A stretch of DNA of 64,000 bases from Kiritimatiellia bacterium (GCA_045627605.1 JAZQOA010000019.1:124-64123); one strand, 5' to 3'; positions 11,938 through 60,911 are shown, counted from the stretch's first letter. The notes: generated by a model not told the origin, from the letters alone. Numbers and translations are program-made.

Positions 11938-12103
11938 AAAGAGTCCTTGTTCTTTGGGGAAAATTATGTTGCAAATGACACATTCCGTCAAGTATTTTCG
12001 GGAAATCGCCTTATTTTGGTGCGGAATCGCTGTTTTTATGTGACATTTCGCACCTAAATGTGAGTTCGGCGGGCAAAGGCAAGGCCGGGATTTCCCGTCG
12101 GAT

Positions 12104-12132
12104 TTGACTTCCCTGCGCTTTTATGGCATAAT
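12104..12132 (+). promoter_or_regulatory. sigma70-like promoter for tRNA-Tyr
   Basis: TTGACT (12104-12109), 17-nt spacer, CATAAT (12127-12132), ending 15 nt before the mature tRNA 5' end. Confidence 0.45.
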
Positions 12133-12147
12133 ATTCTCCACATTTCT

Positions 12148-12233
12148 GGTGGGGTACCGAAGTGGCCAACCGGGGCAGACTGTAAATCTGCTGGCATACG
12201 CCTTCCTTGGTTCGAATCCAAGCCCCACCACCA
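12148..12233 (+). tRNA. tRNA-Tyr (anticodon GTA), CCA encoded
   Basis: GGTGGGGTACCGAAGTGGCCAACCGGGGCAGACTGTAAATCTGCTGGCATACGCCTTCCTTGGTTCGAATCCAAGCCCCACCACCA. Acceptor stem GGTGGGG/CCCCACC, anticodon loop CTGTAAA, long variable arm, T-loop GGTTCGAATCC. Closely parallels E. coli tRNA-Tyr. Confidence 0.95.
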
Positions 12234-12300
12234 TTTTGAGAACCCCAAGTCACAGCCGCGAGGCTTGATTGGGGGTTTTTCATTTTTGAGGGTTGAGAAA

Positions 12301-12885
12301 ATGCCTGACGCCGAAGAGAAAAAAGTCGAAGACCTTGAAAACGCCGAATCCGCCAAGTCCGGTGGGGAAGCCCAAGCCGAAAAGACCGCTGAACCCGCCA
12401 CAGAGACCGCGCAGGAGACGTGTGAAATCGAGAAGCTCCGCCAGGAGCTCGCGGACGAAAAGGACCGCGCAATGCGTCTTTTCGCCGATTTCGAGAACTT
12501 CCGCCGCCGCACGGCCAAGGAACGCGCCGAGACTTTCCAGCGCGCCGAGGAGAGCGTCTATGTCGAGCTGCTGCCCGTCGTTGACAATTTCTCTCGCGCC
12601 ATGGGCCAGGCGGGTGACGACCCCTTCGCCCAGGGCGTGAAGATGGTCTTCTCCCAGCTTCTCGAGTTCCTGAAGAAGGGTGGCGTCGAGCCTATCGAGG
12701 CACTGGGCGCCGATTTCGACCCGGCCGTCCACGAGGCGGTCGCCTACCAGCCTTCGCCCGAGGCGGCGGAGGGCAAGATCATCTACGAGACCCGCCGCGG
12801 CTACCGCATGGGCGACCATGTGATCAGGCCGGCGTCGGTCATCGTGTCAAGCGGCGCCCCGGCCGGGGCGGCCGAAAATAAATAA
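12301..12885 (+). CDS. grpE: nucleotide exchange factor GrpE
   Basis: 194 aa from ATG 12301. Acidic N-terminus, then [21 protein letters not shown] and a C-terminal beta domain ([16 protein letters not shown]). Lies upstream of dnaJ. Confidence 0.85.
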
Positions 12886-12929
12886 AGCATAGTACCGCAT
12901 ATTCCACGAAAGGAAACCGGAGGCCACCC

Positions 12930-14102
12930 ATGGCTGAACAAAAAAGGGACTACTACGAGGTGCTTGGCGTCGCCAAGGATGCCTCGGCCGATGAAATCAA
13001 AAAAGCCTACCGCAAGCTCGCGATGAAGTACCATCCCGACCGCAACCCGGGCGACAAGGAGGCGGCGGACAAGTTCAAGGAGGCTTCGGAGGCCTACGAG
13101 ATCCTGAGCAATCCCGAGAAACGCGAGCGCTACGACCGCTTCGGCCATGCGGGCAACCAGTTCGGCCCCGGCGGATTCGACTTCGGGCGCGACTTCTCCG
13201 GCGGCGCCGATTTCGCCGACATCCTCGGCTCGCTCTTCGGCGGGGGTTTCAGTTCCTTCTTCGGCGGCGGACGGTCGCGCCAACGCGACCCCGACGGCCC
13301 CATGCGGGGCGCCGACATCGACTTCGAGATGAACATCACGCTTGAGGAGGCGATTTTCGGCGGCAGCCGCGAGGTCGAGCTCCCTGTTTCCGAAGACTGC
13401 CACGAGTGCCACGGCACTGGTGCGGCGAAGGGCTCCAAGCGCGAGAAGTGCAAGCAGTGCGGCGGCCGCGGCGTCGTCATCGCGGGCGGCGGCTTCATCC
13501 AGTTCCAGCAGACCTGCCCGGTTTGCCACGGCGAGGGCACGATCGTCACGAACCCCTGCCGCGAGTGTCACGGTTCCGGCCGCGTGAAGCAACGCAAGAG
13601 CATCACCGTCAAGATCCCGCGCGGTGTCGACACCGGCAACCGCATGCGCCTCGCCGGGCTGGGCGACAGCGGGTCGCGTGGCGGCCCCAACGGCAACCTG
13701 ATGGTCGTCTTCAACGTCCGCCAGCACGCGATCTTCGAGCGCGAAGGCAACAACCTCGCCTGCGAAGTCAGGGTGCCGCTCCACATCGCCGCGCTGGGCG
13801 GCTCCGTTTCCGTCCCGACGCCAGACGGCCCCGCGCAGTTCAAGATTCCGCCGGGCACGGCCAACGGCAAGCTCTTCCGCTACCGCGGCAAGGGCATGAC
13901 CTCCATCCACGGCGACGTCGGCGACATGATGGTGCGGGTTGTCGTCGAGGTGCCCGAAGGACTGTCCTCCTCGCAGAAGAAGGCCCTCCAGGCCTTCGCC
14001 GACACCTGCAAGGAGGGCAACTACCCCGAGGCGTCGAAATTCGACAAGCAGGCCGCAGAGTTCCTCCGCATGCGCGACGCGCTTCTCAAGGGCGGCCAAT
14101 AG
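12930..14102 (+). CDS. dnaJ: molecular chaperone DnaJ
   Basis: 390 aa. J domain with HPDRNPGD, a G/F-rich region, four CxxCxGxG zinc motifs ([32 protein letters not shown]) and a C-terminal substrate-binding domain. Confidence 0.95.
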
Positions 14103-40418: not shown

Positions 40419-42650
40419 ATGACCGCATCTTCAATTACACCCGCCCCAACGCCTGCCGACCCGTTCTGGACGGTGGCTGATCCAATCGCGGACGTCGTCG
40501 CCCCAGATCCGTTTGTCTGTTTCGACGCCGCGAGCGGATGGTACTATTCGCTCTTTACGAGAAGCACCAGGGTTGAGATATTCCGCAGCCGCGATCCCGG
40601 GAGTCTCCTCGCCGACAACGACAGCGCCGTGGTTTTCGAGGTTGGCGCCGCCGTCGGCATCTACTCCTGCGTCTGGGCCCCGGAGATGCACCGCGCACCG
40701 AACGGCAGGTGGTACATCTACACGAGTGGCAACACGATTCCCGGCGACACGTGGAAGCTCCGCCTCTTTGTGCTGGAATCAAAGACGTCCGACCCGTTCG
40801 ACGGCTTCGTTTTCAAGGGGTTTCCGCTTCCAGGCGTCGAGGCCATCGACCCGACGGTCTACGCGGCGCCCGATGGCCGCCGCTACCTCGTCTGCGCCCG
40901 TATGGGCGGTGGCGGCGAAAGCCTCTGGATGACCGAGCTTGAAAATCCCTGGACCTGCAAATCCGAAGGCGTGGAGCTGGTGCGTCCTGAACTTGACTGG
41001 GAACTGTCCTGCGGGCACATTGCGGAAGGTGCCTTCTTCCTGGAGAACGGCGGAAGGCTCTTCCTCGTCTATTCGGTCAACGACTGCCGCGCCGACACCT
41101 ATTCGCTCGCCATCGCCGAGCATGTCGGCGGCACCCTTATGGATGCGGCCAACTGGAAGAAAGGCGAAGCCCCCCTCCTCGTGCAAAGCGAGGGCATCTA
41201 CGGTCCCGGCCATGCGTCGTTTTTCAGGAAACCAAATGGCGAAATTTGGTGCGCCTACCACGCGCGCACCGTTCCAAACGCCGGCTTTGGCAAGCCCGAC
41301 TCGCGGAAGTTCTTCCTCCGCAAACTCAATTTCGACGCCGAAGGACGGCCCTCTTTCGACTGGGTTGCGATCCGCGCCATGCCCGACCGCCGCGTTTTCG
41401 TCCGCACCCCCAACTACGATCCCTTGAAAATCGCCCCCTACGAGCTTGAGGATCCGCTTGTGTTTTGCGACGGACGCAAAGTCGCCGATGCCGCCGGATG
41501 GGCGGAGCGCCGCCAGGAAATCCTCGGCATTTTCGCCCGCGAAATGTATGGTCAGCCGCCCCCGCCGCCAGAGGCGGTTGTCACGGAGCTGGCGGACGAA
41601 AAGATCGGCGTCGCTGCCGGCTTCGCCATCCGCCGCCAGTACCGCATGTGGTTCAAGGCCGACAAATCCGGCCCCTGCGTGAACTGGATCCTGTGGCTGC
41701 CGCGCTACGCGAAAAACCCCGTCCCCGTCATTTCATTCCTCAACTACAAGGGCAACCACGAGCTCGTCCCCGACGCGGACGTGCCCGTTTGCACGGCGTG
41801 GGTGCGCGGCTGCGCGTCGCATCGTTCCGACGAAGGCCTTCGCGGACGCATGCAGGATCCCGAATGTGACGCCGTCTTCCCGCTGGGCATGATTCTCGCC
41901 CGCGGCTACGCCGTGATGAGCGCCTGCTACGCCGAAATTTCACCGGATCCCGACCGCGCGGGCTGGGCGGATGACGCCGACAAGTTTCCGCAGGCGACTT
42001 TCGCCTACAAAGGTGTCTTCGACCTGTGGGGCGAACGCGATTCCCGCCGTTTGGACAACCCGACGGCGCTTGGCGCCTGGGGCTGGGCGCTTTCGCGCGG
42101 GCTCGACCTTGCCGAACGCATCCCCGAAATCGACGCGAATCGATCGGTTGTCACCGGCTATTCGCGCCTCGGCAAGGCGGCGCTTCTGGCGGCGGCGCGC
42201 GACGAGCGCTTCGCCGTGTGCGTCCCCAACCAGACGGGCGGCGGCGGCGCACCGCTTGCCAAACGCGACTACGGCGAGAACGTCTCGACGGAAAACACCA
42301 ACTTCATCCACTGGTACTGCCCCGCTTACGCGAAGTACGCCGCCGATCCGGCCCGGACGTTGTTCTTCGACCAGCACCTGCTGCTCGCCTGCGTGGCCCC
42401 GCGCGCTTTGCTCGTCGAGGGCTTTGACGAACCATGGTTCGACACGGAGGGCGAATACCTCGCTGTCAAGGCGGCGAGTCCCGTCTGGGAGTTCCTGAAG
42501 GGTGGCGGCATGCCGAATGTGGATTTTCCTCCTGATTTCGACACTTCGGCGATTGGCCGCCATCTCGGCTATGTTCGCCGCTGCGAAAAACACGGCATCT
42601 CGGCCTACGACTGGCAATGGCTGCTTGATTTTTCGGATTCAAAATGGTAG
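40419..42650 (+). CDS. bifunctional-looking glycoside hydrolase family 43-like N-terminal domain fused to a CE15 glucuronoyl-esterase-like C-terminal domain
   Basis: 743 aa with GAGGG RBS. The N-terminal ~320 aa carry beta-propeller GH43-type blocks (DPFV, VWAPEMH, HIAEGAFF). The C-terminal half resembles bacterial CE15, with the nucleophile motif GYSRLGKAAL (compare the GCSRxG consensus). No signal peptide at MTASSITPAPTPADPFW. Confidence 0.6.
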   Translation: MTASSITPAPTPADPFWTVADPIADVVAPDPFVCFDAASGWYYSLFTRSTRVEIFRSRDPGSLLADNDSAVVFEVGAAVGIYSCVWAPEMHRAPNGRWYIYTSGNTIPGDTWKLRLFVLESKTSDPFDGFVFKGFPLPGVEAIDPTVYAAPDGRRYLVCARMGGGGESLWMTELENPWTCKSEGVELVRPELDWELSCGHIAEGAFFLENGGRLFLVYSVNDCRADTYSLAIAEHVGGTLMDAANWKKGEAPLLVQSEGIYGPGHASFFRKPNGEIWCAYHARTVPNAGFGKPDSRKFFLRKLNFDAEGRPSFDWVAIRAMPDRRVFVRTPNYDPLKIAPYELEDPLVFCDGRKVADAAGWAERRQEILGIFAREMYGQPPPPPEAVVTELADEKIGVAAGFAIRRQYRMWFKADKSGPCVNWILWLPRYAKNPVPVISFLNYKGNHELVPDADVPVCTAWVRGCASHRSDEGLRGRMQDPECDAVFPLGMILARGYAVMSACYAEISPDPDRAGWADDADKFPQATFAYKGVFDLWGERDSRRLDNPTALGAWGWALSRGLDLAERIPEIDANRSVVTGYSRLGKAALLAAARDERFAVCVPNQTGGGGAPLAKRDYGENVSTENTNFIHWYCPAYAKYAADPARTLFFDQHLLLACVAPRALLVEGFDEPWFDTEGEYLAVKAASPVWEFLKGGGMPNVDFPPDFDTSAIGRHLGYVRRCEKHGISAYDWQWLLDFSDSKW

Positions 42651-49479: not shown

Positions 49480-49506
49480 TGAAACTTCAACTTTACGGAG
49501 GAACTT

Positions 49507-50772
49507 ATGGATCTCAAGGCAGCTTACAAGACGATTATGGACGACCACTTCACCCCGCGCATGGAGATTTCCTTCATCGACGGCGAGACGCGCCAGACCC
49601 TCGTCTACGAGAAGGTCTCGTGGGTGATTGACGGCGAGAAGAAGGGGCTTCGCTACGGCGAGAACCCCGGCCAGGAGGCGGCGGTTTACAAGCTTGTCAA
49701 CGGCAACCTCGCGTTGGGCGACGTCCGCTCGATCGATGCCGGGCAGATTCTCGCTTCCGACCCCGAACTGCTCCAGTCGGGCAAGCACCCCGGCAAGACC
49801 AACCTGACGGACGCCGACAACGCCCTCAACATCCTCCGCTACCTCACGGACGCCCCCTGCGCGGTAATCGTCAAGCACAACAACCCCTGCGGCGTCGCCA
49901 AGGGCGCGTCGCTTGCGGACGCCTACAACCGCGCCAACCGCGCCGACCGCCTCGCCGCCTTTGGCGGTTGCATCGCGCTCAACCGCGAATGCGACCTCGA
50001 CACCGCGCGCCTTATTTGCGAGAATTACGCCGAAGTCGTCGTCGCCCCCGAATTCGCCCCCGGCGTCATGGACCTCTTCGCCGAAAAGAAGAACCTCCGC
50101 GTCTTCCGCATCGGCAACATGAAGCGGCTCACCGACTTTGTCGCCAGGCGCGTCGTTGATTTCAAGTCGCTCATCGACGGCGGCATCGTCGCCCAGTGGT
50201 CGTTCGTCCCCGAGGCCCGCTCGCCCGAGAAGTTGATGCCCGCCGAGTGCGTCCGCAAGGATGGCACCGTCCACCGCATCAAGCGCCTTCCCACCGCGAA
50301 GGAATACGACGACCTCGTCTTCGGCTGGCTTGTCGAGGCGGGCGTCACCTCCAACTCGGTGCTCTACGTCAAGGACGGCGTCACGGTCGGCATCGGCACC
50401 GGCGAGCAGGATCGCGTCGGCGTCGCCGAAATCGCGCGCGACAAGGCCTACCGCAAGCTTGCCGACCTGATTTCGTGGGACAAGTATGCGACGCCCTACA
50501 ACGACCTCGTTCTCAAGTTCGGCGACGACGGCGCGAAGAAGCGCGCCGAAATCGACGAAGAAGTCGCCGCGCGCAAGGGTGGGCTCCCCGGCTGCGCAAT
50601 GGTCTCCGACGCCTTCTTCCCCTTCCGCGACGGTGCCGAAGTCGGCATCCGCGGGGGCATCACCTCGATCGTCCAGCCAGGCGGCGCCTTGCGCGACTGG
50701 GATGTCATCGACTGCTGCAACGATGCGGGCGTGGCGATGGTCTTCACGGGGCAGCGCTCCTTCAGGCACTAA
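49507..50772 (+). CDS. AICAR transformylase-domain protein (PurH C-terminal-like, lacking the MGS/IMP cyclohydrolase domain)
   Basis: 421 aa. LRYGENPGQEAAVY (compare RYGENPHQ of PurH), VIVKHNNPCGVA, GGCIALN, EVVVAPEF, SNSVLYVKDG..VGIGTGEQDRV, SDAFFPFRDG. Confidence 0.75.
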   Translation: MDLKAAYKTIMDDHFTPRMEISFIDGETRQTLVYEKVSWVIDGEKKGLRYGENPGQEAAVYKLVNGNLALGDVRSIDAGQILASDPELLQSGKHPGKTNLTDADNALNILRYLTDAPCAVIVKHNNPCGVAKGASLADAYNRANRADRLAAFGGCIALNRECDLDTARLICENYAEVVVAPEFAPGVMDLFAEKKNLRVFRIGNMKRLTDFVARRVVDFKSLIDGGIVAQWSFVPEARSPEKLMPAECVRKDGTVHRIKRLPTAKEYDDLVFGWLVEAGVTSNSVLYVKDGVTVGIGTGEQDRVGVAEIARDKAYRKLADLISWDKYATPYNDLVLKFGDDGAKKRAEIDEEVAARKGGLPGCAMVSDAFFPFRDGAEVGIRGGITSIVQPGGALRDWDVIDCCNDAGVAMVFTGQRSFRH

Positions 50773-50800
50773 AATTCCGCACCAAAAGACGCGGGACGGC

Positions 50801-50834
50801 AAAGGGGCGCGATGTTTTCCATCGCGCCCCTTTT
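50801..50834 (+). terminator. rho-independent terminator after the purH-like gene
   Basis: 14-bp stem AAAGGGGCGCGATG (50801-50814) / CATCGCGCCCCTTT (50820-50833), loop TTTTC, T-rich tail. Confidence 0.7.
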
Positions 50835-51350
50835 GGGTAGAATGACTTTGTTCCTTTTTCCTCGCATTGGCGCGGGGAAAGCCGCGGTAACGCAGGATGT
50901 TCTTTCAAGACGGCGGATGCACATCGGACCGGGAAAAAAAGGAGACAGGGAAACCCACCCGGGGCCCAGTAAACATACGCAACACGTTGCGCATTAGTTG
51001 AGTTGTAAAATATCGATGAAAAAACAATTTGCATGAAATAAACATGAAAGTGAATGTGCAAATCCAAATATTGCAAAAGGTGAGAAAGTGTGGATGTTCT
51101 TCCAGTTATCATCCCAGCGTAAGATAGAGGGACAGTCCCCTTGTTGCAAAGCCTCACAATATTGTAAATTAAGCAAATTTAATCATGGTTGACTTTTTGG
51201 GGGTGATGCAATTGCCGGCACATGTCCGGGGACCTTTCGAACGACTCCTTGCGTAAAATGACGAGATTTGTAAAAATAAGTGCGTTGTCCGAATCGTTCC
51301 CTGTCGGCCGGGGGAGTGCAATTACTTTTCCAGAGGAAAGAGGTTTGACC

Positions 51351-54300
51351 ATGGATTCGCTCAAGTTTTTGCCCTGCGCCATTGCCGGTGCAGTTGCGAT
51401 TGCCCTTTCGGGTGTCTGCCAGGATTCGCCTGGGCTGGCGAGTTCGTCCCGCGGCGGGGACGAGCTGAGGAATTTGTCGGCGGCGATGGTCCCTATCCCC
51501 GGCAAGGACTACAGCCTGTGCAAATACGAGGTGACGCGGGGGTTGTGGGCGGTCGTGATGGGCGGCGATTCGCCCGACGCCGGCGAAGCGGAGAAGCCCG
51601 TCTACCAGGTCTCCTGGTTCGACTGTCAGAAGTTTTTGGAAAAGTTGAATGCGCTGGATCCGGGGCATGGCTATCGATTGCCGACGCTGAACGAGTGGGA
51701 ACACGCCTGTCGCGCGGGAGGCAAGGGGGCATGCGGGAAATTGGCCGACGGGCGCGAGGCGGTCGTTGACGAGGTGGCCTGGTATGTCGGGAATGCTTCC
51801 GGCCGGGTGCAGAGGGTCGGGCAGAAGCTGCCGAATGCCTTTGGCCTCTACGACATGCTCGGCAACGCGAGTGAATGGGTGTCGACGGACGTCTGCGGCG
51901 ACAGGTACTATCTTGGCGGGGAGAGCTGTAACCCGGCCGAATGGATGAGGTGGCGTGGCCGGAGTTGGTGCCATCCCTCGCACAGGAGCTGCGGGTTGCG
52001 CGTTTGCGCCGGCCTGTCGGCCGCGCAACGGGAGGCTGCGGGGAAAAAGGCCGCCGAGATGCGGGCCGAGGCGTTGCGGGAGCTACCGTCGACGATGGTG
52101 CCGATCCCCGGCAGGAGCTACAGCCTTTGCAAGTACGAGGTGACGCAGATCCTCTGGGAGGCCGTGATGGGCGGCAAGCCGTTGGCCTATGTGGGCGACG
52201 ACCTGCCCGTGAGCGATGTCTCGTGGGACGATTGCCAGCAGTTCCTGGCGAAGTTGAACGAACGATGCCCTGGCCACGACTACCGCCTCCCGACCGAGGA
52301 GGAGTGGGAACACGCCTGCCGTGCGGGAAGCACGGGGAAGTTCGGTAATCTCGCCGATGGGCGCGAGGGAAAGCTCAAGGAGCTGGGGTGGTATCATGAC
52401 AGTCCATACGGCACCCCTGACGTCTACCCCGTGGGGGCGAAAAAGCCCAATGCCTTCGGTCTCTACGACATGCACGGCAATGTGGCGGAATGGACCTCCA
52501 CCCCGGTTGGAAGCGCGTGGGTCATTCGCGGCGGGGGATTGCGCAACGAGGCCGCCTGGTGCGAGGCGGGATGCCAAAATTTGGGCTACCACGATGTCCG
52601 CAGCCCAAATATCGGCTTCCGTCTCTGCGGCACGTTTTCCGCGGCGGAGCGCGAAGCGGCGTCCGCGATAACGGCTGCGGAACTGGAAAAGGCCGCTGCC
52701 GCCGAGGTGGATGCCAGAAGCGAGGCCGTGGAGTTACGGAAGACGGGCGACGCCATGCTGAAGAACTTGCAGAACCTCATGGTGCGGATTCCGGGTGGCG
52801 GCGTTTACATGTGCAAGTACGAGGTGACCCAGGGGGTGTGGGCTTCCGTGATGGGAACGGCACCTTCGTTCTTCAAGGGCGCCGACTTGCCGGTGGAAAA
52901 TGTCTCGTGGGACGACTGCCAGGAGTTTCTGGCGAAGTTGAATGAAATATCTCCCGGCCACGACTATCGTCTCCCGACAAGGAAGGAATGGGAATACGCC
53001 TGCCGCGCGGGAAGCGAGGGGTTGTACGGGAGGCTGGCGGACGGCCGCGAAGGAACATTAGGCGAGTTGGCGTGGTACTACTGGAATTCTGACTCGAAGA
53101 CCCATCCTGTCGGACAAAAGGCACCGAACGCCTTCGGTCTCTACGACATGCACGGCAACGTGGCGGAATGGACGTCGACGGCCACCAGGGAGCACAGGGA
53201 TTGCTGTGGCGGCGGTTTCAGTTTTTGGGATGCCGAGTGCGCATCGGACATGCGCCGTTCGCCACTTCGCGACACGCACGACAAGTGCTTTGGTTTCCGC
53301 ATCTGCTACAGTACCGCGTTGACCGAAGAGGAGCGGGAGGCACTCGAAAAGACCAGGGCGGAGGCCCGTGCGGCGGTTGAAAAAGCCATGGCGGAAGCAG
53401 TGGCGGCCTTGCCGTCGACGATGGTTCAAATTCCCGGCAAGGACTTCTGCCTGTGCAAATACGAGGTGACGCAGGCGTTGTGGGAGGCTGTGACGGGCGA
53501 AAACCCCGCGCGTTTCAAAGGTGTTGACAATCCGGTCAACAACGTTTCGTGGGATGATTGCCAGGCGTTTCTCGTGAAGCTGAATGAAATGTACCCTGGC
53601 CGCGATTTCCGCCTCCCGTCCGAGGAGGAGTGGGAGTACGCCTGCCGAGCGGGAAGCACGGGATGGTATGGCCTTGTGGCGGATGGCCGAGAAGGTGAGC
53701 TTGATAAAATAGCATGGTACAAAAGCAACAGCGGAGATAAGTCCCACCCCGTCGGGCAGAAGGAGCCGAACGCCTTCGGCCTCTACGACATGCACGGCAA
53801 CGTGAGCGAGTGGACGACGACTGTCAATGGCTACCAGATGGTTTATCGCGGTGGAAACGCGTTTCAGGGGAGGGCCTCCTGCCGGGTTGACTTTGTCAAC
53901 TCAGCGGGGCGGCGGTTCCGCTCCGACACTGTCGGGCTCCGCCTCTGCGGCAAGTCCATGCTGACCGACGAGGAGCGGGCCGCGATTGAGAAGGAAGAGG
54001 CGGAGGCCCGCGCGGCGCACGAGAACGTCCTGGCGGAAGCCCTGGTCACCCTGCCGTCGACGATGGTTCAAATCCCCGGGAAGGACTACTGCCTTTGCAA
54101 GTACGAGGTGACGCAGGCGCTCTGGGAGGCCGTGACGGGCGAAAATCCCGCGCGTTTCAAGGACGTTGACAATCCGGTCAACAACGTTTCGTGGATTGAT
54201 TGTCGGGACTTCCTCAAGAAGCTGAATGAAATGTGCCCCGGCCGCGATTACCGACTCCCAACCGAGGAGGAGTGGGAGTATGCCTGCCGAGCGGGAAGCA

Positions 54301-54611
54301 CGGGCAAATACGGTGCCCTCGCCGACGGGCGCGAAGGTACGCTTGATGAAATGGGATGGTACAACGACAATGCCAATAACCAAGTGCATGTCCCCGGGCT
54401 GAAAAAGCCCAATGCCTTTGGCCTTTACGACATGCACGGCAATGTCGGCGAGTGGACATCCACGCCCCAGGGGGATGATTGCATGGTCTGCCGAGGCGGT
54501 GACTTTGCGCACGGCGGAATCATTTGCATGGCCGGAGTTGACAAATTGTACGGGCTGGGGTACAGGAGCAACACGGTCGGGCTCCGTCTTTGCTGCAGGC
54601 CTGCGCCGTAG
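51351..54611 (+). CDS. secreted protein or lipoprotein composed of five tandem FGE-sulfatase (SUMF1-type) domains joined by Ala/Glu-rich helical linkers
   Basis: 1086 aa from ATG 51351. N-terminus MDSLKFLPCAIAGAVAIALSGVCQ. Each module carries MV.IPG...Y.(L/M)CKYEVTQ..W..V, VSW.DCQ.FL.KLN, (H/R)(D/G)(Y/F)RLP(T/S)..EWE(H/Y)ACRAG, NAFGLYDM(H/L)GN..EW, ..GG...., (I/V)G(F/L)R(L/I/V)C. Confidence 0.85.
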   Translation: MDSLKFLPCAIAGAVAIALSGVCQDSPGLASSSRGGDELRNLSAAMVPIPGKDYSLCKYEVTRGLWAVVMGGDSPDAGEAEKPVYQVSWFDCQKFLEKLNALDPGHGYRLPTLNEWEHACRAGGKGACGKLADGREAVVDEVAWYVGNASGRVQRVGQKLPNAFGLYDMLGNASEWVSTDVCGDRYYLGGESCNPAEWMRWRGRSWCHPSHRSCGLRVCAGLSAAQREAAGKKAAEMRAEALRELPSTMVPIPGRSYSLCKYEVTQILWEAVMGGKPLAYVGDDLPVSDVSWDDCQQFLAKLNERCPGHDYRLPTEEEWEHACRAGSTGKFGNLADGREGKLKELGWYHDSPYGTPDVYPVGAKKPNAFGLYDMHGNVAEWTSTPVGSAWVIRGGGLRNEAAWCEAGCQNLGYHDVRSPNIGFRLCGTFSAAEREAASAITAAELEKAAAAEVDARSEAVELRKTGDAMLKNLQNLMVRIPGGGVYMCKYEVTQGVWASVMGTAPSFFKGADLPVENVSWDDCQEFLAKLNEISPGHDYRLPTRKEWEYACRAGSEGLYGRLADGREGTLGELAWYYWNSDSKTHPVGQKAPNAFGLYDMHGNVAEWTSTATREHRDCCGGGFSFWDAECASDMRRSPLRDTHDKCFGFRICYSTALTEEEREALEKTRAEARAAVEKAMAEAVAALPSTMVQIPGKDFCLCKYEVTQALWEAVTGENPARFKGVDNPVNNVSWDDCQAFLVKLNEMYPGRDFRLPSEEEWEYACRAGSTGWYGLVADGREGELDKIAWYKSNSGDKSHPVGQKEPNAFGLYDMHGNVSEWTTTVNGYQMVYRGGNAFQGRASCRVDFVNSAGRRFRSDTVGLRLCGKSMLTDEERAAIEKEEAEARAAHENVLAEALVTLPSTMVQIPGKDYCLCKYEVTQALWEAVTGENPARFKDVDNPVNNVSWIDCRDFLKKLNEMCPGRDYRLPTEEEWEYACRAGSTGKYGALADGREGTLDEMGWYNDNANNQVHVPGLKKPNAFGLYDMHGNVGEWTSTPQGDDCMVCRGGDFAHGGIICMAGVDKLYGLGYRSNTVGLRLCCRPAP
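51486..54608 (+). repeat. five in-frame tandem coding repeats (module anchors at 51486, 52095, 52779, 53421, 54063)
   Basis: Anchor ATGGT(N)C(N)(N)AT(N)CC(N)GG recurs with spacings of 609, 684, 642 and 642 nt. Modules 4 and 5 are identical at roughly nine positions in ten in a hand alignment of about 260 nt (53411-53670 versus 54053-54312). Confidence 0.9.
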
Positions 54612-54635
54612 CCAACCTTCGTGTTCGTGCTTTTT

Positions 54636-54664
54636 TTGCCTCACGCGCGCTTTTAGAGTATAAT
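54636..54664 (+). promoter_or_regulatory. sigma70-like promoter of nifU-nifS
   Basis: TTGCCT (54636-54641), 17-nt spacer, TATAAT (54659-54664). Confidence 0.55.
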
Positions 54665-54752
54665 AATACGCTTCGGTTTCGTTTGAAAATGTCGTTTCCG
54701 GTGGGGCATCCGCGCCGGGCGGTGTTTGGCTTAATGGCTTATTCGAGGTTTT

Positions 54753-55601
54753 ATGTGGAATTACACTGACAAGGTCCTGGATCACTTTCGCAACCCCCGC
54801 AACGTCGGGAAGATCGAGAATCCCGACGGCACGGGAACCGTCGGCTCGCTCGCCTGCGGCGATTCGCTTACGCTGACTTTCAAGCTCGACGGGAACGGAC
54901 GCATCGCGGACGTCAAATTCCAGACTTTCGGCTGCGCCTCGGCCATAGCGTCGTCGTCGGCGCTTACGGAGCTTGTGAAGGGCAAGACGCTTGAGGAGGC
55001 GGAGAAGATCACCAACAAGGAGATCGCCGACTACCTGGGCGGCCTCCCCGAGCAGAAGATGCATTGCTCCGTCATGGGCCGCGAGGCGCTTGAGGCGGCG
55101 ATTCACAATTACCGCACCGGCGAGACGGTTGTCCGCGACCTCAAGGAGGAGAAGATCGTCTGCAAGTGCTTTGGCGTCTCCGAGGAGGAAATCGTCCGCG
55201 TCGCCACCGAGAACGGCCTGACGACCGTCGACCAGGTGACGCACTATTGCAAGGCGGGCGGCGCCTGCGGCCAGTGTCGCGGCGAGATCCAGGCGGTTCT
55301 CGACCGCCTCGCCGCGGAGCGCGCGAAGTCCGCCGCTCCCGCCGAGGCGCCGAGGAAACTCACGAATCTCCAGAAGATGAAGCTCGTCGAAGAGGTCATC
55401 GAGCGCGAAATCCGCCCGGCCCTCCGCCGCGACAGGGGCGACATCGACCTCATCGACATCGCCGGCGACAAGGTGACGATCGCCTTCCGCGGCATGTGCT
55501 CGGGCTGTCCGACGGCCGAGGTCACGCGCCGCGACTTCATCCAGGCCAAGCTCCGCGAGTTTGTCTCGCCCGAAATCGAAGTCGTCGAGGAGAAGGCGTA
55601 A
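54753..55601 (+). CDS. nifU: Fe-S cluster assembly scaffold NifU (three-domain type)
   Basis: 282 aa. IscU-like N-terminus (GSLACGD, FGCASAIASSSA, MHCSV), BFD-like 2Fe-2S centre (CKCFGV...CKAGGACGQC), C-terminal NifU domain (CSGCP). Confidence 0.9.
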   Translation: MWNYTDKVLDHFRNPRNVGKIENPDGTGTVGSLACGDSLTLTFKLDGNGRIADVKFQTFGCASAIASSSALTELVKGKTLEEAEKITNKEIADYLGGLPEQKMHCSVMGREALEAAIHNYRTGETVVRDLKEEKIVCKCFGVSEEEIVRVATENGLTTVDQVTHYCKAGGACGQCRGEIQAVLDRLAAERAKSAAPAEAPRKLTNLQKMKLVEEVIEREIRPALRRDRGDIDLIDIAGDKVTIAFRGMCSGCPTAEVTRRDFIQAKLREFVSPEIEVVEEKA

Positions 55602-55602
55602 A

Positions 55603-56772
55603 ATGGCGGAAAAGCCCTTGGTTTACCTCGACAACAACGCCACGACGAGGATCGCCCCCGAAGTGACGGAGGCGATGTTGCCTTTCTTCACCGAGAAATG
55701 GGGCAACCCGTCGAGCATGCACCTTTTCGGCGGCCGCGTGATGGCGGATGTCGACGCGGCCCGTGCGCGCATCGCGGCCTTCATCAACGCCGACCCCGCC
55801 GAGATCATTTTCACAAGCTGCGGCACGGAGAGCGACAACACCGCCATCTACGGCGCAGTCGAGGCGCTCGGCCCCGAGACGACGCTGATCACCTCCAAGG
55901 TCGAGCATCCCGCGGTTCTCGGCCCCTGCCGCCATTTCCGCGACGCCCACGGCCACCGCCTTGTCGAAGTCGGCGTCGATGGCGGCGGCCACCTCAACCT
56001 CCACGAACTCGCCGCCGCGCTCGCGCTCCCCGGCCCCAAGGCCGTCTTCCTGATGTGGGCCAACAACGAGACCGGCGTGGTTTTCGAGATGGAGAAGATC
56101 GCCCGCATGTGCAAGGACGCCGGCGCCTTCCTGCATACCGACGCCGTCCAGGCCGCCTCGAAGATTCCGCTCGACGTCTCCAAGGTCCCGGTCGACACAC
56201 TTGCCTTCGCCGGTCACAAAATCCACGCGCCGAAGGGCATCGCCGTGCTCTACGTGCGCCGCGGGACGCGTCTCCGCACCTACATGATCGGCGGCCACCA
56301 GGAGAATGGCCGCCGCGGCGGCACCGAGAACGTCCCCTACATCGTCGGGCTCGCAAAGGCCTGCGACCTCGCCGCGGAGCATCTTCGCGACACGTCCGGG
56401 ATGGCGCGGCTTCGCGACAAGCTCGAGAACGGGCTTCTCGCCTCGTGCCCCGACGCCAGCGTCAACGGCGACCGTGCGGCGCGCGTCCCCAACACGACCA
56501 ATGTCAGCTTCTCGTTTATCGAGGGCGAGGCGATGCTCTACCATCTTTCCGATCTCGGCATCTGCGCGTCGTCCGGCTCCGCGTGCTCGTCGGGCTCGCT
56601 CGAACCCTCGCACGTGATTCGCGCCATGGGCATTCCCTTCACGCAGGCCCACGGTTCGCTCCGCTTCAGCCTCAGCCGCTACACGACCGAGGCCGAAATC
56701 GACTACACGCTCGAGCACATGCCGCGAATCGTCGCCAAGCTCCGCGAGCTTTCGCCCTTTGTGGCGAAATAG
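55603..56772 (+). CDS. nifS: cysteine desulfurase NifS
   Basis: 389 aa from ATG 55603. YLDNNATT, PLP lysine GHKIHAPKG, active-site SSGSACSS. Confidence 0.9.
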   Translation: MAEKPLVYLDNNATTRIAPEVTEAMLPFFTEKWGNPSSMHLFGGRVMADVDAARARIAAFINADPAEIIFTSCGTESDNTAIYGAVEALGPETTLITSKVEHPAVLGPCRHFRDAHGHRLVEVGVDGGGHLNLHELAAALALPGPKAVFLMWANNETGVVFEMEKIARMCKDAGAFLHTDAVQAASKIPLDVSKVPVDTLAFAGHKIHAPKGIAVLYVRRGTRLRTYMIGGHQENGRRGGTENVPYIVGLAKACDLAAEHLRDTSGMARLRDKLENGLLASCPDASVNGDRAARVPNTTNVSFSFIEGEAMLYHLSDLGICASSGSACSSGSLEPSHVIRAMGIPFTQAHGSLRFSLSRYTTEAEIDYTLEHMPRIVAKLRELSPFVAK

Positions 56773-56777
56773 GCGCC

Positions 56778-59700
56778 ATGGCGGAACTTGTCCAGACCCC
56801 GGCGCCCGGCAGCCGTCTCCTTAGGTGCGCGGGAGACCGCCTCATCCTCTCGCTTTCCGTTCCGGCGGGTTTCGCCAAAGGCCGCGCCTTCGCGCGAACC
56901 AATATCGACGGCGTCTCGTGGAAGGACCTGCCGATGGCCCCGTCGGCCGCGCCGGGTTCCGATGGCGCCGCAACCTACGTGCTTGAGCTTCGTCCCCGCG
57001 CCGTCGGCGTCTTCGCCGCCAAGACTTATTTTCTGCCGGATGGCGCGAGCGAGCCCGTCTGGCCTTCGGGCGCCGACGTCCTTGTCAAGGTGGCGCCCGC
57101 CTGGACGCGCTGCGGTTGCTCGATTTATACGGCCTTCACCCGGCAATTCCGCGCCGACGACGGCCGCGCGGCCACCACCGCCTTGCGCGATGAGATCGCC
57201 GCCCTCGATCGCGCGGGCTATGCCGTGATTCCGCCTTCCGGGACTTTCAGAACCCTTGCGAAACGCCTCGACCACATCATCGGCGGGCTTGGCTTCAACA
57301 TCGTCCAACTGCTGCCGGTCCACCCGGTGCCGACGACCTATGCGCGCATGGGGCGCTTCGGAAGTCCCTTCGCGAGCCTCGACTTCTACTCGGTCGACCC
57401 GGCCCTGGCGGAGTTTGACGAGTCCGCCACGCCGCTCGACCAGTTCGTGGAGCTGGCGGACGCTGTCCATGCCCGTGGTGCGCGCCTCTTCCTCGACCTC
57501 CCCGCCAATCACACCGGATGGGCCTCGACTTTCCACACGCACCACCCCGAATGGTTCCGCCGCAATGGCGACGGGTCGTTCCACTCGCCCGGCGCCTGGG
57601 GCGTCACCTGGGCCGACCTCGTGGAGCTTGACTACTCCCGCCCCGCCATTCGCGACGCCATCTCCGATGTTTTCCTCTTTTGGTGCGCCAAGGGCGTCGA
57701 CGGCTTCCGCTGCGACGCCGGCTACATGATCCCGTGCGAGGTCTGGCGCCATGTCGTCGGGAAGGTCCGCGCGGTTTTCCCCGACACCGTTTTCCTGCTT
57801 GAGGGGCTTGGTGGCAAGCTCGAGGTCACGGACGCCCTCCTCTCCGACGCCGGGCTTGACTGGGCCTATTCGGAGATTTTCCAGCAGGGCAACCGCGATG
57901 CGCTTTCCTGGTACTTGCCGCCGGCTATCGGCCGGTCGGAGTCGTTCGGCCCGCTCGTCAATTTCGCCGAGACGCACGACAACAACCGTCTTGCCGCGAA
58001 CGGCAATGCCTACGCCTCGATGAGGACGGCGCTCGCCGCGCTCCTGTCGCAGCAGGGGGCCTTCGGCATCACCGCGGGTGTCGAGTGGTTCTGCCGCGAC
58101 AAAATCGACGTCCATGGAGCGCCGCCCCTCAACTGGGGCGCATCCGAAAACCAGTGCCGCCTCATTTCGCGGCTCAACGCGATTCTCGCCGCGCACCCGG
58201 CGTTCCAGGTTGGCGCACACCTTGAGATCGTGACGCGTGGCGCGGGCAATGTCATCGCCGCACTGCGCACGGTGCCGTCCCCGGCTGGAAGCGCCGCCGC
58301 CGAAGGCACCGTCCTCGTCGCGGTGAACCTCGATTGCGCAACCCCCGCGCGCGTCGAGTGGCCCGCCGGGTTTTTTGCCCCGCAAGTGGCCTGGGATCTT
58401 GTTTCCTCGAAGCCGGCATCGATTCTCGCCGCCGGCGAAACGGCGGCAATCGATCTGCCGCCAGGGGGCTTTGCCGCGCTCGTCCCCTCCGCCGACACGC
58501 TCCGCGCCGTCGAAACGCAGGAGGAGGCGCGTGTTCGTTCCGGTTGTGTTTCATGCGTCCCCGCTTCGCCGCAGTTTTCCGGCAGGGTTGTCGAGTTCGA
58601 CTTCCCGCGCGATGCGCGGCGTACGGTAATGGTGCCGCCGGGCTTCGCCCTTCGCATCGCCAGTCGAAGCCCGTTCCGCGCCCTGCTCCTCGACGGCGAG
58701 GGGATGCCCGTGGCGTCTTGCGTCTCCACCCCCGCGGGCGCGACATTCGCCGCGTCTGTCGCGGTGCCGGCGGGCGACACGCGCCGCTTCTACACGCTGT
58801 CCGTGACATGCTATGGGGAGGAAACTGCGCGGACGCAATCCCCGGTGCTCGCACTGCCGTCTGCGGACAAGGCGGTGTTCAGCCTTTGCGCGGCTGGCGG
58901 ACGTATTCGCGACGGCGAGGATGTTCTCGCCGTGCTGGCGAACCGCCGCGGCGCGATGGCGCAGGTCCGTGCCGCGTGGGGCGAGATCCGGAGCCAGTAC
59001 GACGCCTTGCTTGCGGTCAACCCAGACCCGCGCGTCCCGGCGAACAAGCAGGTCTTCCTTGCGCGCTGCAAGGCGTGGGTGCGCCACTGCGGCTACTCGT
59101 TCGAGCTTGACGCCTCTTGCCTTGAGTCGTTCCGACTGCTTTCGGAACATGCCGCGGCGTGGAGGTTCTCCACGCCTGTCGGGCGGGGCGACACGGCCGT
59201 GGTCGAGGTTGTTCTCTGCCTCTCGGAAGGCGACAACCTCGCCACGCTGCGCTTCTCAATGCCGGAACTTCACCGCGCCGGAAACGAAAAGACTTCGGCG
59301 CCGATCGAGCTTGTGCTGCGGCCCGATGTCGAGGCGCGCGACTTCCATGGCCCGACGCTGGCCTACGCGGGCGCCGAGCAAGTCTATCCGGCCGCGGTGC
59401 GCACCTTGCCCAACGGCTTCGATTTCGATCCTCCCGGGTGCATCGCCTGCGGTCTTCGCCTGCCGGACGGCACATTCCACAAGGACGGCATCTGGTCATA
59501 TTCGGTGCCGCATCCTGTCGAGGCGGAGCGCGGTCTCTCCCCGACGGGCGACCTCTATAGCCCCGGATGGTTTTCGATTCCGCTTGTGACTGGGCGGAGC
59601 GTATGTCTCGTCGCGGGCGAAACCTCCGTCGTCGATGCGTTTTGCGCGGGGAATGGCGATTTCGGCGGTGCGAATGCCGCAGACGCCATGGGTGCGCCAT

Positions 59701-60911
59701 ATGGCGACACCATACGGTTGGGCGATTGGCTGGCGTCGAACCCCGCCCGGCTTTTCGTCGCGGACAGGGACGACCTCAAGACTGTCATCGCCGGCTACCC
59801 GTGGTTCCTTGACTGGGGCCGTGACACGCTCATCGTGCTCCGCGGCCTGCTCGCCGCCGGCGAAACCGACACGGCCCTCGCCATCCTGCGCGAGTTCGGC
59901 CGGTTTGAGGAGGGGGGTACGCTCCCCAACATCATCCATGGATCGACAATCGGCAATCGCGACACCTCCGACGCGCCGCTTTGGTTCGTCGTCGCGGCCG
60001 GCGACGCGATGGCGCTTTGCGGCGACAAGGCCGTCGCCTCGCTTGATTGTGGCGGACGCCCCCTTGGCGAGGTGATGTCCGCCATTGCGCGCGGCTACCT
60101 CGCCGGCACGCCCAACGGCATCAAGGTCGATTTGGAAACCGGGCTTGTCTTCAGTCCGTCGCATTTCACGTGGATGGATACGAACTACCCGGCCGGAACT
60201 CCGCGCGCGGGTTACCCCGTCGAAATACAGGCTCTGTGGATCGCGGCGCTTGCGACTATTCGCGAAAGGCTCGGCGTCCGCGACTTCGAGGCGGTTGAGC
60301 GCAAGGCGCGTGAATCGCTGGTCAAGTACTATGTCCTGCCCGAAGGCTGGCTCGCCGATTCGCTCCGGGTTCGTTCCGCTGTCTTTGAGCCGGCGTCCGC
60401 AGCCACGCCGGAGGATGCGCTGCGCCCCAACCAGTTGCTTGCCGTGACGCTTGGCGCACTCGACCCGCGCGGCGAGACGGCGCGGGCCGTTGTCGCGGCT
60501 ACGGCTTCGCTTCTCGTGCCCGGCGGGATTCGGTCGCTGGGCGACCGCGCCGTCAACGTGCCGCAGCCGGTCTGGAACGGCGACCGTCTGCTCAACGACC
60601 CGATGAAGCCTTATTGGGGCCGCTACGAAGGCGACGAAGACACCCGCCGCAAGCCAGCCTACCACAACGGCACGGCGTGGGGATGGCAGTTCCCGCTCTG
60701 GTGCGAGGCCTGGGCGCTCGCGGGCGGGGAGGAGGCGCGCGAACCGGCCCGCGCGGTTCTCGCCTCGGCGGCGGCGCTGCTGGAGACGGGGTGCCTGGGG
60801 CAGCTCCCGGAAATCCTCGACGGCGATTCGCCGCACATCCAGCGCGGTTGCCTGGCGCAGGCCTGGAGCATTTCGGAGTTGCAGCGCGTGTGGCGCGCGC
60901 TGGATCGGTGA
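56778..60911 (+). CDS. fusion of a GH13 alpha-amylase-family catalytic domain with a glycogen-debranching (amylo-alpha-1,6-glucosidase, GDE_N plus GDE_C) module
   Basis: 1377 aa from ATG 56778; the 5' 1080 nt of the 1737-aa ORF overlap nifS out of frame and are Arg/Pro-rich. GH13 blocks: FLDLPANHTG, GVDGFRCDAGYMIP, FLLEGLGG, NFAETHDNNR. C-terminal (alpha/alpha)6-type blocks: GYPWFLDWGRDT, PVEIQALW, YHNGTAWGWQFPLW, LPEILDGD...CLAQAWSISE. Confidence 0.8.
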   Translation: MAELVQTPAPGSRLLRCAGDRLILSLSVPAGFAKGRAFARTNIDGVSWKDLPMAPSAAPGSDGAATYVLELRPRAVGVFAAKTYFLPDGASEPVWPSGADVLVKVAPAWTRCGCSIYTAFTRQFRADDGRAATTALRDEIAALDRAGYAVIPPSGTFRTLAKRLDHIIGGLGFNIVQLLPVHPVPTTYARMGRFGSPFASLDFYSVDPALAEFDESATPLDQFVELADAVHARGARLFLDLPANHTGWASTFHTHHPEWFRRNGDGSFHSPGAWGVTWADLVELDYSRPAIRDAISDVFLFWCAKGVDGFRCDAGYMIPCEVWRHVVGKVRAVFPDTVFLLEGLGGKLEVTDALLSDAGLDWAYSEIFQQGNRDALSWYLPPAIGRSESFGPLVNFAETHDNNRLAANGNAYASMRTALAALLSQQGAFGITAGVEWFCRDKIDVHGAPPLNWGASENQCRLISRLNAILAAHPAFQVGAHLEIVTRGAGNVIAALRTVPSPAGSAAAEGTVLVAVNLDCATPARVEWPAGFFAPQVAWDLVSSKPASILAAGETAAIDLPPGGFAALVPSADTLRAVETQEEARVRSGCVSCVPASPQFSGRVVEFDFPRDARRTVMVPPGFALRIASRSPFRALLLDGEGMPVASCVSTPAGATFAASVAVPAGDTRRFYTLSVTCYGEETARTQSPVLALPSADKAVFSLCAAGGRIRDGEDVLAVLANRRGAMAQVRAAWGEIRSQYDALLAVNPDPRVPANKQVFLARCKAWVRHCGYSFELDASCLESFRLLSEHAAAWRFSTPVGRGDTAVVEVVLCLSEGDNLATLRFSMPELHRAGNEKTSAPIELVLRPDVEARDFHGPTLAYAGAEQVYPAAVRTLPNGFDFDPPGCIACGLRLPDGTFHKDGIWSYSVPHPVEAERGLSPTGDLYSPGWFSIPLVTGRSVCLVAGETSVVDAFCAGNGDFGGANAADAMGAPYGDTIRLGDWLASNPARLFVADRDDLKTVIAGYPWFLDWGRDTLIVLRGLLAAGETDTALAILREFGRFEEGGTLPNIIHGSTIGNRDTSDAPLWFVVAAGDAMALCGDKAVASLDCGGRPLGEVMSAIARGYLAGTPNGIKVDLETGLVFSPSHFTWMDTNYPAGTPRAGYPVEIQALWIAALATIRERLGVRDFEAVERKARESLVKYYVLPEGWLADSLRVRSAVFEPASAATPEDALRPNQLLAVTLGALDPRGETARAVVAATASLLVPGGIRSLGDRAVNVPQPVWNGDRLLNDPMKPYWGRYEGDEDTRRKPAYHNGTAWGWQFPLWCEAWALAGGEEAREPARAVLASAAALLETGCLGQLPEILDGDSPHIQRGCLAQAWSISELQRVWRALDR

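Follow-up and report, generated by a model that had tools for sequence, protein, structure and literature searches.

A 64,000-nucleotide stretch of the genome of a Kiritimatiellia bacterium (GCA_045627605.1 JAZQOA010000019.1:124-64123; hereafter the window) carries, at positions 51351–54611 on the + strand, a gene for a protein of 1086 residues in which five domains of the formylglycine-generating enzyme (FGE) type follow one another in tandem. Our analysis suggests that the product is probably an exported, non-enzymatic, multivalent binding protein. None of the five modules has the cysteine pair of the FGE catalytic site, their nearest structural relative is TvpA of Treponema denticola, a variable protein of a diversity-generating retroelement (DGR), and they share a conserved scaffold while differing from one another in the segment that DGRs vary, in a window where no DGR was detected. 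The protein is one ordinary member of a large, unstudied family, and its architecture is not unusual.

Five FGE-type modules without the catalytic cysteine pair

Pfam analysis found PF03781 (FGE-sulfatase) as the sole domain of the protein, in five stretches with a total score of 416.8 bits (cut-off 23.3). Scanned singly, each module was recognised (80.7–98.1 bits), with E values of 1.8e-22, 7.4e-27, 1.6e-27, 8.8e-28 and 1.6e-25 for modules 1–5 respectively, and nothing meaningful matched when the linkers were scanned alone. The FGE fold and the count of five, both claimed in the original prediction, were thus borne out, the count also by five MVxIPG module starts at residues 46, 249, 477, 691 and 905; the modules end at G[FL]R[LVI]C. 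Module 1 (residues 46–219, positions 51486–52007, matching profile positions 69–192) is the most divergent, and is followed on the + strand by module 2 (residues 249–426, 52095–52628), module 3 (residues 477–652, 52779–53306), module 4 (residues 691–866, 53421–53948) and module 5 (residues 905–1086, 54063–54608).

Between the modules lie four linkers, at residues 220–248 (52008–52094), 427–476 (52629–52778), 653–690 (53307–53420) and 867–904 (53949–54062), all on the + strand. They are 29, 50, 38 and 38 residues long respectively, and Ala, Glu, Arg and Lys make up 53–63% of them. In the AlphaFold2 model of the whole protein, which has a mean predicted local distance difference test score (pLDDT) of 83.7 and values >90 in modules 2–5, the linkers are four long single helices (residues 224–244, 431–471, 659–686 and 873–900). 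The linkers had been described beforehand as Ala/Glu/Arg-rich coiled coils; their helical nature is supported by the model and the coiled-coil part was not confirmed. The predicted template-modelling score of the whole protein was only 0.45, which suggests that the modules may have no fixed mutual arrangement. When the model was compared with the PDB using Foldseek, the best 50 matches were all of the FGE fold (TvpA, PvdO, CarF, PorK, FGE, SUMF2, CalU17, OvsA and EgtB).

The modules were then aligned with human FGE, using a sequence that was checked to be 100% identical to chains 1y1e and 8aru and anchoring the alignment on the GG and GFR motifs. The Cu(I)-binding catalytic residues of human FGE, C336 and C341, are at positions 6 and 11 after GG. 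Position 6 is occupied by N, N, F, Q and H in modules 1–5 respectively, and thus never by Cys; a position-11 Cys is present in modules 2–5 and in TvpA, and module 1 has neither. Among 223 full modules taken from the 120 best homologs, 77% had Cys at position 11 and 2% had it at position 6, and <1% had both. As the defining cysteine pair is missing in every module, FGE catalysis appears to be excluded on sequence grounds. The earlier description of most modules as non-catalytic binding units agrees with this count (none of the five has Cys at both catalytic positions), and the difference of the region after GG from module to module, noted at the same time, is seen in the module alignment.

The modules have their Pfam family and overall fold in common with the FGE enzyme (SUMF1/FGE; PDB 1y1e, 6muj and 2q17), but they are only ~175 residues long compared with ~280, lack Cys336/Cys341 and show weak sequence similarity (E ~1e-6). 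Nor did the protein reach the NCBIfam equivalog cut-off of any other enzyme or envelope family with the fold, even with scores summed over the five modules: these were 247.8 against 500 for PvdO, 201.7 against 350 for GldK, 113.5 against 458.2 for GldJ, 86.5 against 360 for EgtB, 58 against 400 for OvoA and 48.6 against 420 for SenA. The DinB-like iron-binding N-terminal domain of EgtB, OvoA and SenA was not found, Pfam showing PF03781 alone. A sulfatase signature was absent from all frames of the 64-kb window, and the Pfam-scanned open reading frames (ORFs) include no sulfatase; with housekeeping genes on both flanks, the link to sulfatase maturation that the original prediction had considered found no support here. 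A candidate second FGE-type gene near 41.1 kb was rejected as a weak chance blastn match inside a GH43/glucuronyl-esterase gene.

The best PDB sequence match was TvpA (2y3c), with an E value of 1.9e-19 for the whole protein and 5.4e-17 for module 2. PvdO, PorK/GldK, CarF (5aoh, a chain that carries the label 'Spore coat protein CotH' in the sequence table) and SUMF2 came next, and true FGEs matched only at E ~1e-6. Foldseek also put TvpA at the top (E 8e-14; TMt, the TM-score normalised by target length, 0.55), then PvdO, CarF, PorK and the FGEs. The nearest structural relative is therefore the DGR variable protein TvpA rather than FGE. Like the window protein, for which export is predicted, TvpA is exported and without the catalytic cysteine pair; it has no FGE activity and is thought to be a ligand binder (PMC5758913). 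It also shares with modules 2–5 the single conserved Cys at position 11, the tail length and the site of the variable surface. However, TvpA consists of one module, the tail of which is rewritten by a cognate template repeat and reverse transcriptase, whereas the window protein has five modules in a single chain on helical spacers and no template repeat or reverse transcriptase in the window. PorK/GldK, GldJ and PvdO are likewise exported FGE-fold proteins without the catalytic Cys residues, and PorK has been called non-enzymatic on account of the two missing residues (PMC12421860), reasoning that had also been applied to TvpA (PMC5758913). These proteins are not tandem arrays with divergent tails, and the window protein differs from them in having neither insertion domains nor adjacent partner genes and in scoring far below the family cut-offs; compared with PorK/GldK and GldJ, its N-terminus also lacks a canonical lipobox. 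The best viral structural match was a protein of Microcystis phage LMM01 that has a single FGE-like domain (BFVD A0A7F1; 39% identity over 219 aligned columns, E 6e-18).

Variable tails in a window without a retroelement

The differences between modules are concentrated at their C-terminal ends. The module cores (first ~135 residues) are 49–78% identical in pairwise comparisons and the tails (last ~37 residues) ~23% identical, and the family as a whole likewise shows low entropy in its cores and high entropy in its tails. The variable tails are encoded at 51888–51992, 52503–52613, 53181–53291, 53823–53933 and 54465–54578 in modules 1–5 respectively, and give each module a loop surface of ~37 residues with the pattern EW.ST...GG...C...G[FL]R. 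The tail of module 2 aligns with residues 248–291 of TvpA, which are its DGR variable region, and the GG-to-GFR tail is 28 residues long in modules 2–5, equal to that of TvpA. A C-terminal variable region in an FGE-type C-type lectin fold, as in DGR targets of the TvpA/CLec1 type, is thus present, and the varying region of each module corresponds in position to the variable region of DGR targets. The ratio of non-synonymous to synonymous substitution rates (dN/dS) was 0.14–0.30 for the core in all ten module pairs, and therefore points to purifying selection on the scaffold; that of the tail was 0.34–1.03.

The array appears, from its divergence, to be old. The spacing between repeat units in the DNA is 609, 684, 642 and 642 nt. 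Tandem Repeats Finder found no repeat, its longest period (500 nt) being below the unit length of the array. Modules 4 and 5 had been described as about nine-tenths identical with an exact 642-nt period and, on that ground, as a recent in-frame duplication. The spacing was confirmed for the cores, and the period becomes 645 nt in the tail through a 3-nt indel. The identity was not: it is 80% in the core, 52% in the tail and 68.5% over the ungapped 642-nt unit, and values of 88–92% are confined to 53427–53546. The synonymous divergence (dS) of the core is 0.72 between modules 4 and 5, and every other module pair is saturated (dS >1). Together, the core and tail identities and this dS value show that the duplication of modules 4 and 5 was not recent. 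The longest exact string common to any two repeat units is 30 nt, and a collapse or expansion of the array during assembly is therefore unlikely.

Because the module tails match the variable region of TvpA in place and length, we tested whether the array is a DGR target. A blastn-based scan for adenine-biased pairs of template repeat and variable region, which was validated on Bordetella phage BPP-1, found no such pair in the 64-kb window, whereas it detected the BPP-1 control and six related loci. No template-like copy of any tail was present within the 64 kb. A hidden Markov model (HMM) of reverse transcriptases built from relatives, which recovered the independent enzyme of locus L054 at E 2e-148, matched nothing among the six-frame ORFs of the window at E<=10. 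An active DGR target in cis, considered as a candidate, was ruled out for the window by the missing template repeat, repeat pair and reverse transcriptase. The PADLOC defence models gave no match either, and no NTPase, vWA or effector domain was fused or adjacent to the array, unlike in the known anti-phage systems with FGE-type sensors (STAND, VMAP ternary systems). Moreover, the five tails differ mutually at all codon positions (33–52% nucleotide identity), so that a single template cannot account for them. We regard the array as hard-wired, given that its tails vary at every codon position and that the window has neither a template repeat nor a reverse transcriptase.

Real DGR pairs, with 95–100% of mismatches at adenines, were found in the six related loci (L079, L051, L064, L068, L062 and L054). 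All six are genes with a single C-terminal module, and a reverse transcriptase (YMDD or HMM-detected) lies beside each of them except L064, on whose short contig we saw none. A DGR was thus present in six of the 49 single-module loci compared with none of the 36 multi-module loci, counts that are suggestive only. The codons that carry template-repeat adenines in these relatives correspond to the highest-entropy tail columns of the family (3.57 compared with 1.84 bits; Mann–Whitney p=2e-5), and the same columns are also the more varied ones within the five modules of the window (4.06 compared with 3.00 distinct residues per column; p=0.01). The residues K, E, Q, M and W make up 14% at these DGR-equivalent columns of the window tails compared with 9% at non-adenine tail columns, and their depletion, tried as a sign of a DGR fossil, was not discriminating for the window. 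Taken together, the comparisons suggest that the variation in the window gene is germline-encoded and old, and that it lies on the surface that DGRs vary.

Two relatives show other arrangements, one of them with a DGR and the other possibly a DGR target. In a Prevotella sp. (L079, 3096–13521), six successive genes encode one FGE module each, with a YMDD reverse transcriptase at 11214–12218 and a template repeat at 12237–12368. This template repeat differs from three variable regions by 17–18 adenine-only mismatches, one of the pairs having in addition a single mismatch at C, and the locus is a multi-target DGR made of paralogous genes, not one tandem-array gene. In P0002, the closest five-module relative, the module cores are 85% mutually identical and the tails 47%, and the tails contain 1.5% K/E/Q/M/W, residues that AAC-templated mutagenesis cannot reach; P0002 is thus a candidate DGR target with five variable regions.

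Tandem DGR targets have been reported previously. Three tandem FGE/C-type-lectin domains are published as DGR targets (PMC5758913, PMC10907252), among them a Thiohalocapsa protein that combines vWA with three tandem C-type-lectin domains (PMC10907252), and conflict systems are reported to use FGE-type domains as sensors or as 'neutralising' effectors (PMC7159879, PMC13581612). Like the window protein, the published tandem targets have several FGE-type modules per polypeptide, each with its own variable C-terminal region. However, they are cytoplasmic parts of conflict systems (vWA/MoxR/STAND) or lie beside a DGR cassette, with a single template common to their variable regions, whereas the window protein is predicted to be exported, has five modules and has no NTPase or vWA domain, no PADLOC match and no DGR nearby.

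The gene, its predicted export signal and its insertion site

The gene lies in an intact ORF on the + strand (51222–54611). ATG 51351 is the likely start, giving a coding sequence of 1086 codons plus stop, because a ribosome-binding site (GAGGAAAGAGG; 51333–51343, + strand, read from the sequence, with 7 nt between its end and the ATG) is found just upstream and the database gene call is likewise of 1086 residues. The N-terminus contains in order MDSLK, FLPCAIAGAVAIAL and SGVCQ and, judged by eye, has the make-up of a Sec signal peptide, with a charged, a hydrophobic and a small-residue stretch; positions 51351–51422 (+ strand) would accordingly encode a Sec-type signal peptide (MDSLKFLPCAIAGAVAIALSGVCQ). 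As Val sits before Cys in L-S-G-V-C, this is not a canonical lipobox. The signal or lipoprotein-like N-terminus proposed beforehand is supported as an export signal. The N-termini of homologs are signal peptides or lipoprotein signals, with a clear lipobox in, for example, P0005 (LAGC). The chain stops five residues past module 5, and a C-terminal sorting signal is absent.

By its EF-G, the window belongs to an uncultured Kiritimatiellia bacterium, the best named match (83% identity) being a Kiritimatiellae metagenome-assembled genome. It is part of the core chromosome and contains a ribosomal protein operon at 20–38 kb, and the array gene is flanked by an IMP cyclohydrolase (purH-like) gene upstream and by nifU and nifS downstream. 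Orthologous loci were reached via the neighbouring IMP cyclohydrolase; the 79 loci fetched through the array protein itself showed no synteny. In the closest relatives, with an IMP cyclohydrolase 93–94% identical to that of the window, this gene is directly followed by nifU, nifS and an amylase/GDE fusion gene. Blastn aligned window positions 49503–50771 with 9997–11265 of L088 (88.6%) and 54753–56902 with 11419–13613 (81%), placing the breakpoints at 50771/50772 and 54752/54753. The 3,981-bp segment between them (50772–54752, + strand) is replaced in relatives by a spacer of 153 bp (L088) or 38 bp (L090/L091). Because nifU directly follows the IMP cyclohydrolase gene in the closest relatives, the segment is a lineage-specific insertion, and because these relatives lack it, the array is an accessory gene gained in this lineage. 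The GC content at third codon positions (GC3) of the array gene is 0.76 compared with 0.85–0.89 in its neighbours. We saw no sign of a mobile element at the borders of the segment, and no flanking direct repeats.

An inverted-repeat search located a terminator-like hairpin of the upstream gene at 50801–50833 (+ strand), consisting of a 14-bp perfect stem followed by TTTTGG. Since the hairpin and T-run end the upstream gene, the array gene may be transcribed on its own. The hairpin lies in an AT-rich spacer of 578 bp (50773–51350, + strand; GC 47% compared with 65% in the flanking genes), which is presumably a promoter or regulatory region. Rfam gave no family match in this spacer or at the insertion borders.

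The slot between the purH-like gene and nifU is a possible hot spot for insertions. L092 has there a gene of 122 codons (1842–2210) for a PF05635 (23S_rRNA_IVP) protein; this family includes the DGR accessory protein Avd, and no reverse transcriptase was found in the L092 locus. In L088, the nearest relative, the 153-bp spacer (11266–11418) is made up of simple repeat units of the type CACTC(G/T)TCACTC. Downstream of nifS, an alpha-amylase, GDE_N and GDE_C fusion gene (56787–60911, + strand) occupies the same position in the window as in related Kiritimatiellia; the 1737-residue ORF listed from 55698 overstates its extent, reading across nifS in a different frame. Elsewhere in the window we noted a 1990-residue exported protein with NAGPA phosphodiester glycosidase, InlB B-repeat, PKD and DUF5123 domains (4271–10246, − strand), a fusion of a GH43 glycoside hydrolase and a CE15-like glucuronyl esterase (40419–42650, + strand), and an overlapping direct repeat of 89 nt with 85% identity (383–537).

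The tandem-array family and its likely role

A protein search gave 4520 matches at E<=1e-10 among 8000 candidates scored. The named ones are called 'formylglycine-generating enzyme family protein' and come from metagenome-assembled genomes of Verrucomicrobia and Planctomycetes; altogether, relatives occur in Kiritimatiellia, Verrucomicrobia, Planctomycetes, Lentisphaerae, Acidobacteria and gut Bacteroidales. The best 120 homologs have two modules (14 proteins), three (32), four (56), five (12), six (5) or seven (1), and so the five-fold array, for which the original prediction could cite no description, is far from unique. The architecture is common, as had been foreseen as a possibility, and is annotated as FGE family; no member with a characterised function was found, and the literature searched contained no experimentally characterised exported tandem array of FGE domains. 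Members of this multi-module family (e.g. P0002, P0003 and P0013) have two to seven units and signal peptides, and are built of the same unit as the window protein: a helix, then MVxIPG...CKYEVTQ...SWDDCQ...YRLPTE.EWEYACRAG...NAFGLYDMHGNV.EW, the variable tail and GFRL. The closest of them is just 49% identical to the window protein. Module-by-module orthology between the window array and the closest arrays is absent, which indicates that the arrays were expanded or homogenised independently. In another organism (L086/L087, 6761–12064), three adjacent FGE-type genes (398, 236 and 687 residues) lie upstream of an amylase/GDE fusion gene 46% identical to that of the window, forming a dynamic paralog cluster; here a 253-nt repeat of 93% identity is found upstream of the 398-residue FGE gene and of an adjacent 298-residue gene without a Pfam match.

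We propose that the protein would display its five modules on helical spacers in no fixed mutual orientation, each offering a distinct loop surface of ~37 residues on a conserved scaffold of ~135 residues. As each module is the same scaffold with a different loop surface, a single chain would carry five fixed, different binding surfaces, which could serve avidity or the capture of several ligands, whether a surface, a glycan or a protein. The array protein would not make formylglycine. Its diversity would be germline-encoded, having arisen by old module duplication and divergence with no retroelement acting at the locus, and the gene would be an accessory one inserted into a conserved housekeeping block of this Kiritimatiellia lineage.

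Several observations weigh against this proposal. The binding role is argued by analogy, from homology to TvpA, and the signal peptide was called by eye. The C-terminal half of module 1 (residues 140–222) is modelled by AlphaFold2 with low confidence and may be degenerate, and module 2 carries a C-x3-C pair (WCEAGC), which is a potential metal site. A tail dN/dS of up to ~1 with saturated dS suits relaxed constraint equally well as diversifying selection, and the tails could simply be poorly constrained loops. Furthermore, the mapping of adenines to tail columns came mainly from two DGR modules out of six, those with tails in match columns; the pattern is nevertheless visible in the raw string of every one of the six.

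Other explanations were considered in the light of the same results. That the protein is a structural component of the envelope, using the FGE fold for protein–protein assembly as in the PorK/GldK/GldJ rings of the type IX secretion system or periplasmic PvdO, is unlikely. PvdO, PorK and GldK are indeed the next-best sequence and fold matches after TvpA, and they are exported or lipoprotein FGE folds without the catalytic Cys residues (PMC12421860). However, the summed NCBIfam scores are far under the cut-offs of PvdO, GldK and GldJ, the modules of only ~175 residues have none of the PorK insertion domains, and the gene is accessory, absent in the closest relatives and without adjacent partner genes; a tail that is different in every module is also hard to square with a conserved assembly interface. 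We consider it quite unlikely that the gene is a decaying or functionless remnant of an array that was once a DGR target and has drifted since the loss of its retroelement. Its lineage-specific insertion and lower GC3, the several module pairs with a tail dN/dS near 1 and the aberrant, poorly modelled tail of module 1 would suit such a history, but the frame of 1086 codons is unbroken and comes with both a ribosome-binding site and a predicted signal peptide, the motifs and Cys residues are kept in the modules, and the low core dN/dS in ten of ten pairs speaks for sustained purifying selection.

Very unlikely, in our judgement, is that the tails are continually rewritten by an active DGR elsewhere in the genome, outside the 64-kb window. 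Such a role would fit the positional homology of the tails with the TvpA variable region, the true repeat pairs of the six single-module relatives (five with reverse transcriptases), the documented remote and tandem three-module targets (PMC5758913, PMC10907252) and the DGR-compatible tails of P0002, with 1.5% K/E/Q/M/W at equivalent columns. Yet the window tails differ at all three codon positions without shared fixed non-adenine positions, their 14% K/E/Q/M/W at those columns is beyond AAC-templated mutagenesis, template repeat, reverse transcriptase and adenine-biased pair are all absent within the 64 kb, and multi-module loci show no DGR (0/36 compared with 6/49). A catalytic FGE array or a scaffold for sulfatase maturation is barely credible, even though all five modules match PF03781, relatives bear the FGE family name in databases and Kiritimatiellia are rich in sulfatases (PMC6388578). 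The Cys336/Cys341 pair is found in none of the five modules and is lacking in the family at large, TvpA, PvdO and PorK match much better than the FGE enzymes do, and the gene lies among housekeeping genes with no sulfatase signature in the window and no sulfatase gene nearby. Its absence from the closest relatives is ill-suited to a core maturation factor, and FGE requires O2, whereas the cultured members studied are anaerobes with a single anSME (PMC6388578).

The exported, non-enzymatic, multivalent binding protein thus remains the reading that we favour, and it bears on how the family is annotated. The Kiritimatiellales strains F1 and F21 have 20 and 11 genes respectively with at least one PF03781 domain despite strict anaerobiosis, and an alternate function of these genes was speculated by the authors (PMC6388578). 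When 'FGE family' labels are counted as sulfatase-maturation capacity in sulfatase-rich bacteria of the Planctomycetes–Verrucomicrobia–Chlamydiae group, the reported paradox of O2-dependent FGEs in strict anaerobes results (PMC6388578). The window protein and >99% of the 223 related modules are without the Cys pair and TvpA-like; on this evidence the family appears to be misannotated as FGE and should be annotated as exported binding modules. The significance of the finding is modest and its biological interest tentative. The concentration of family variability on the codons that DGRs mutate in single-module relatives, with no DGR in any of the 36 multi-module loci, hints at two routes to diversity of a binding surface on one scaffold, somatic hypermutation and arrays of fixed paralogous modules, and the arrays may have descended from DGR targets. 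It is possible, though we advance the idea with some doubt, that tandem arrays are a hard-wired alternative to DGR hypermutation, that is, polyvalent, antibody-like adhesins or capture proteins with fixed differing surfaces that are gained and lost as accessory genes. If so, their ligands would be variable ones, for example host or algal glycans or the surfaces of other cells, and the many PF03781 genes of strictly anaerobic Kiritimatiellales would be explained; should the two routes be borne out, stable, modular binders could be obtained from these natural arrays.

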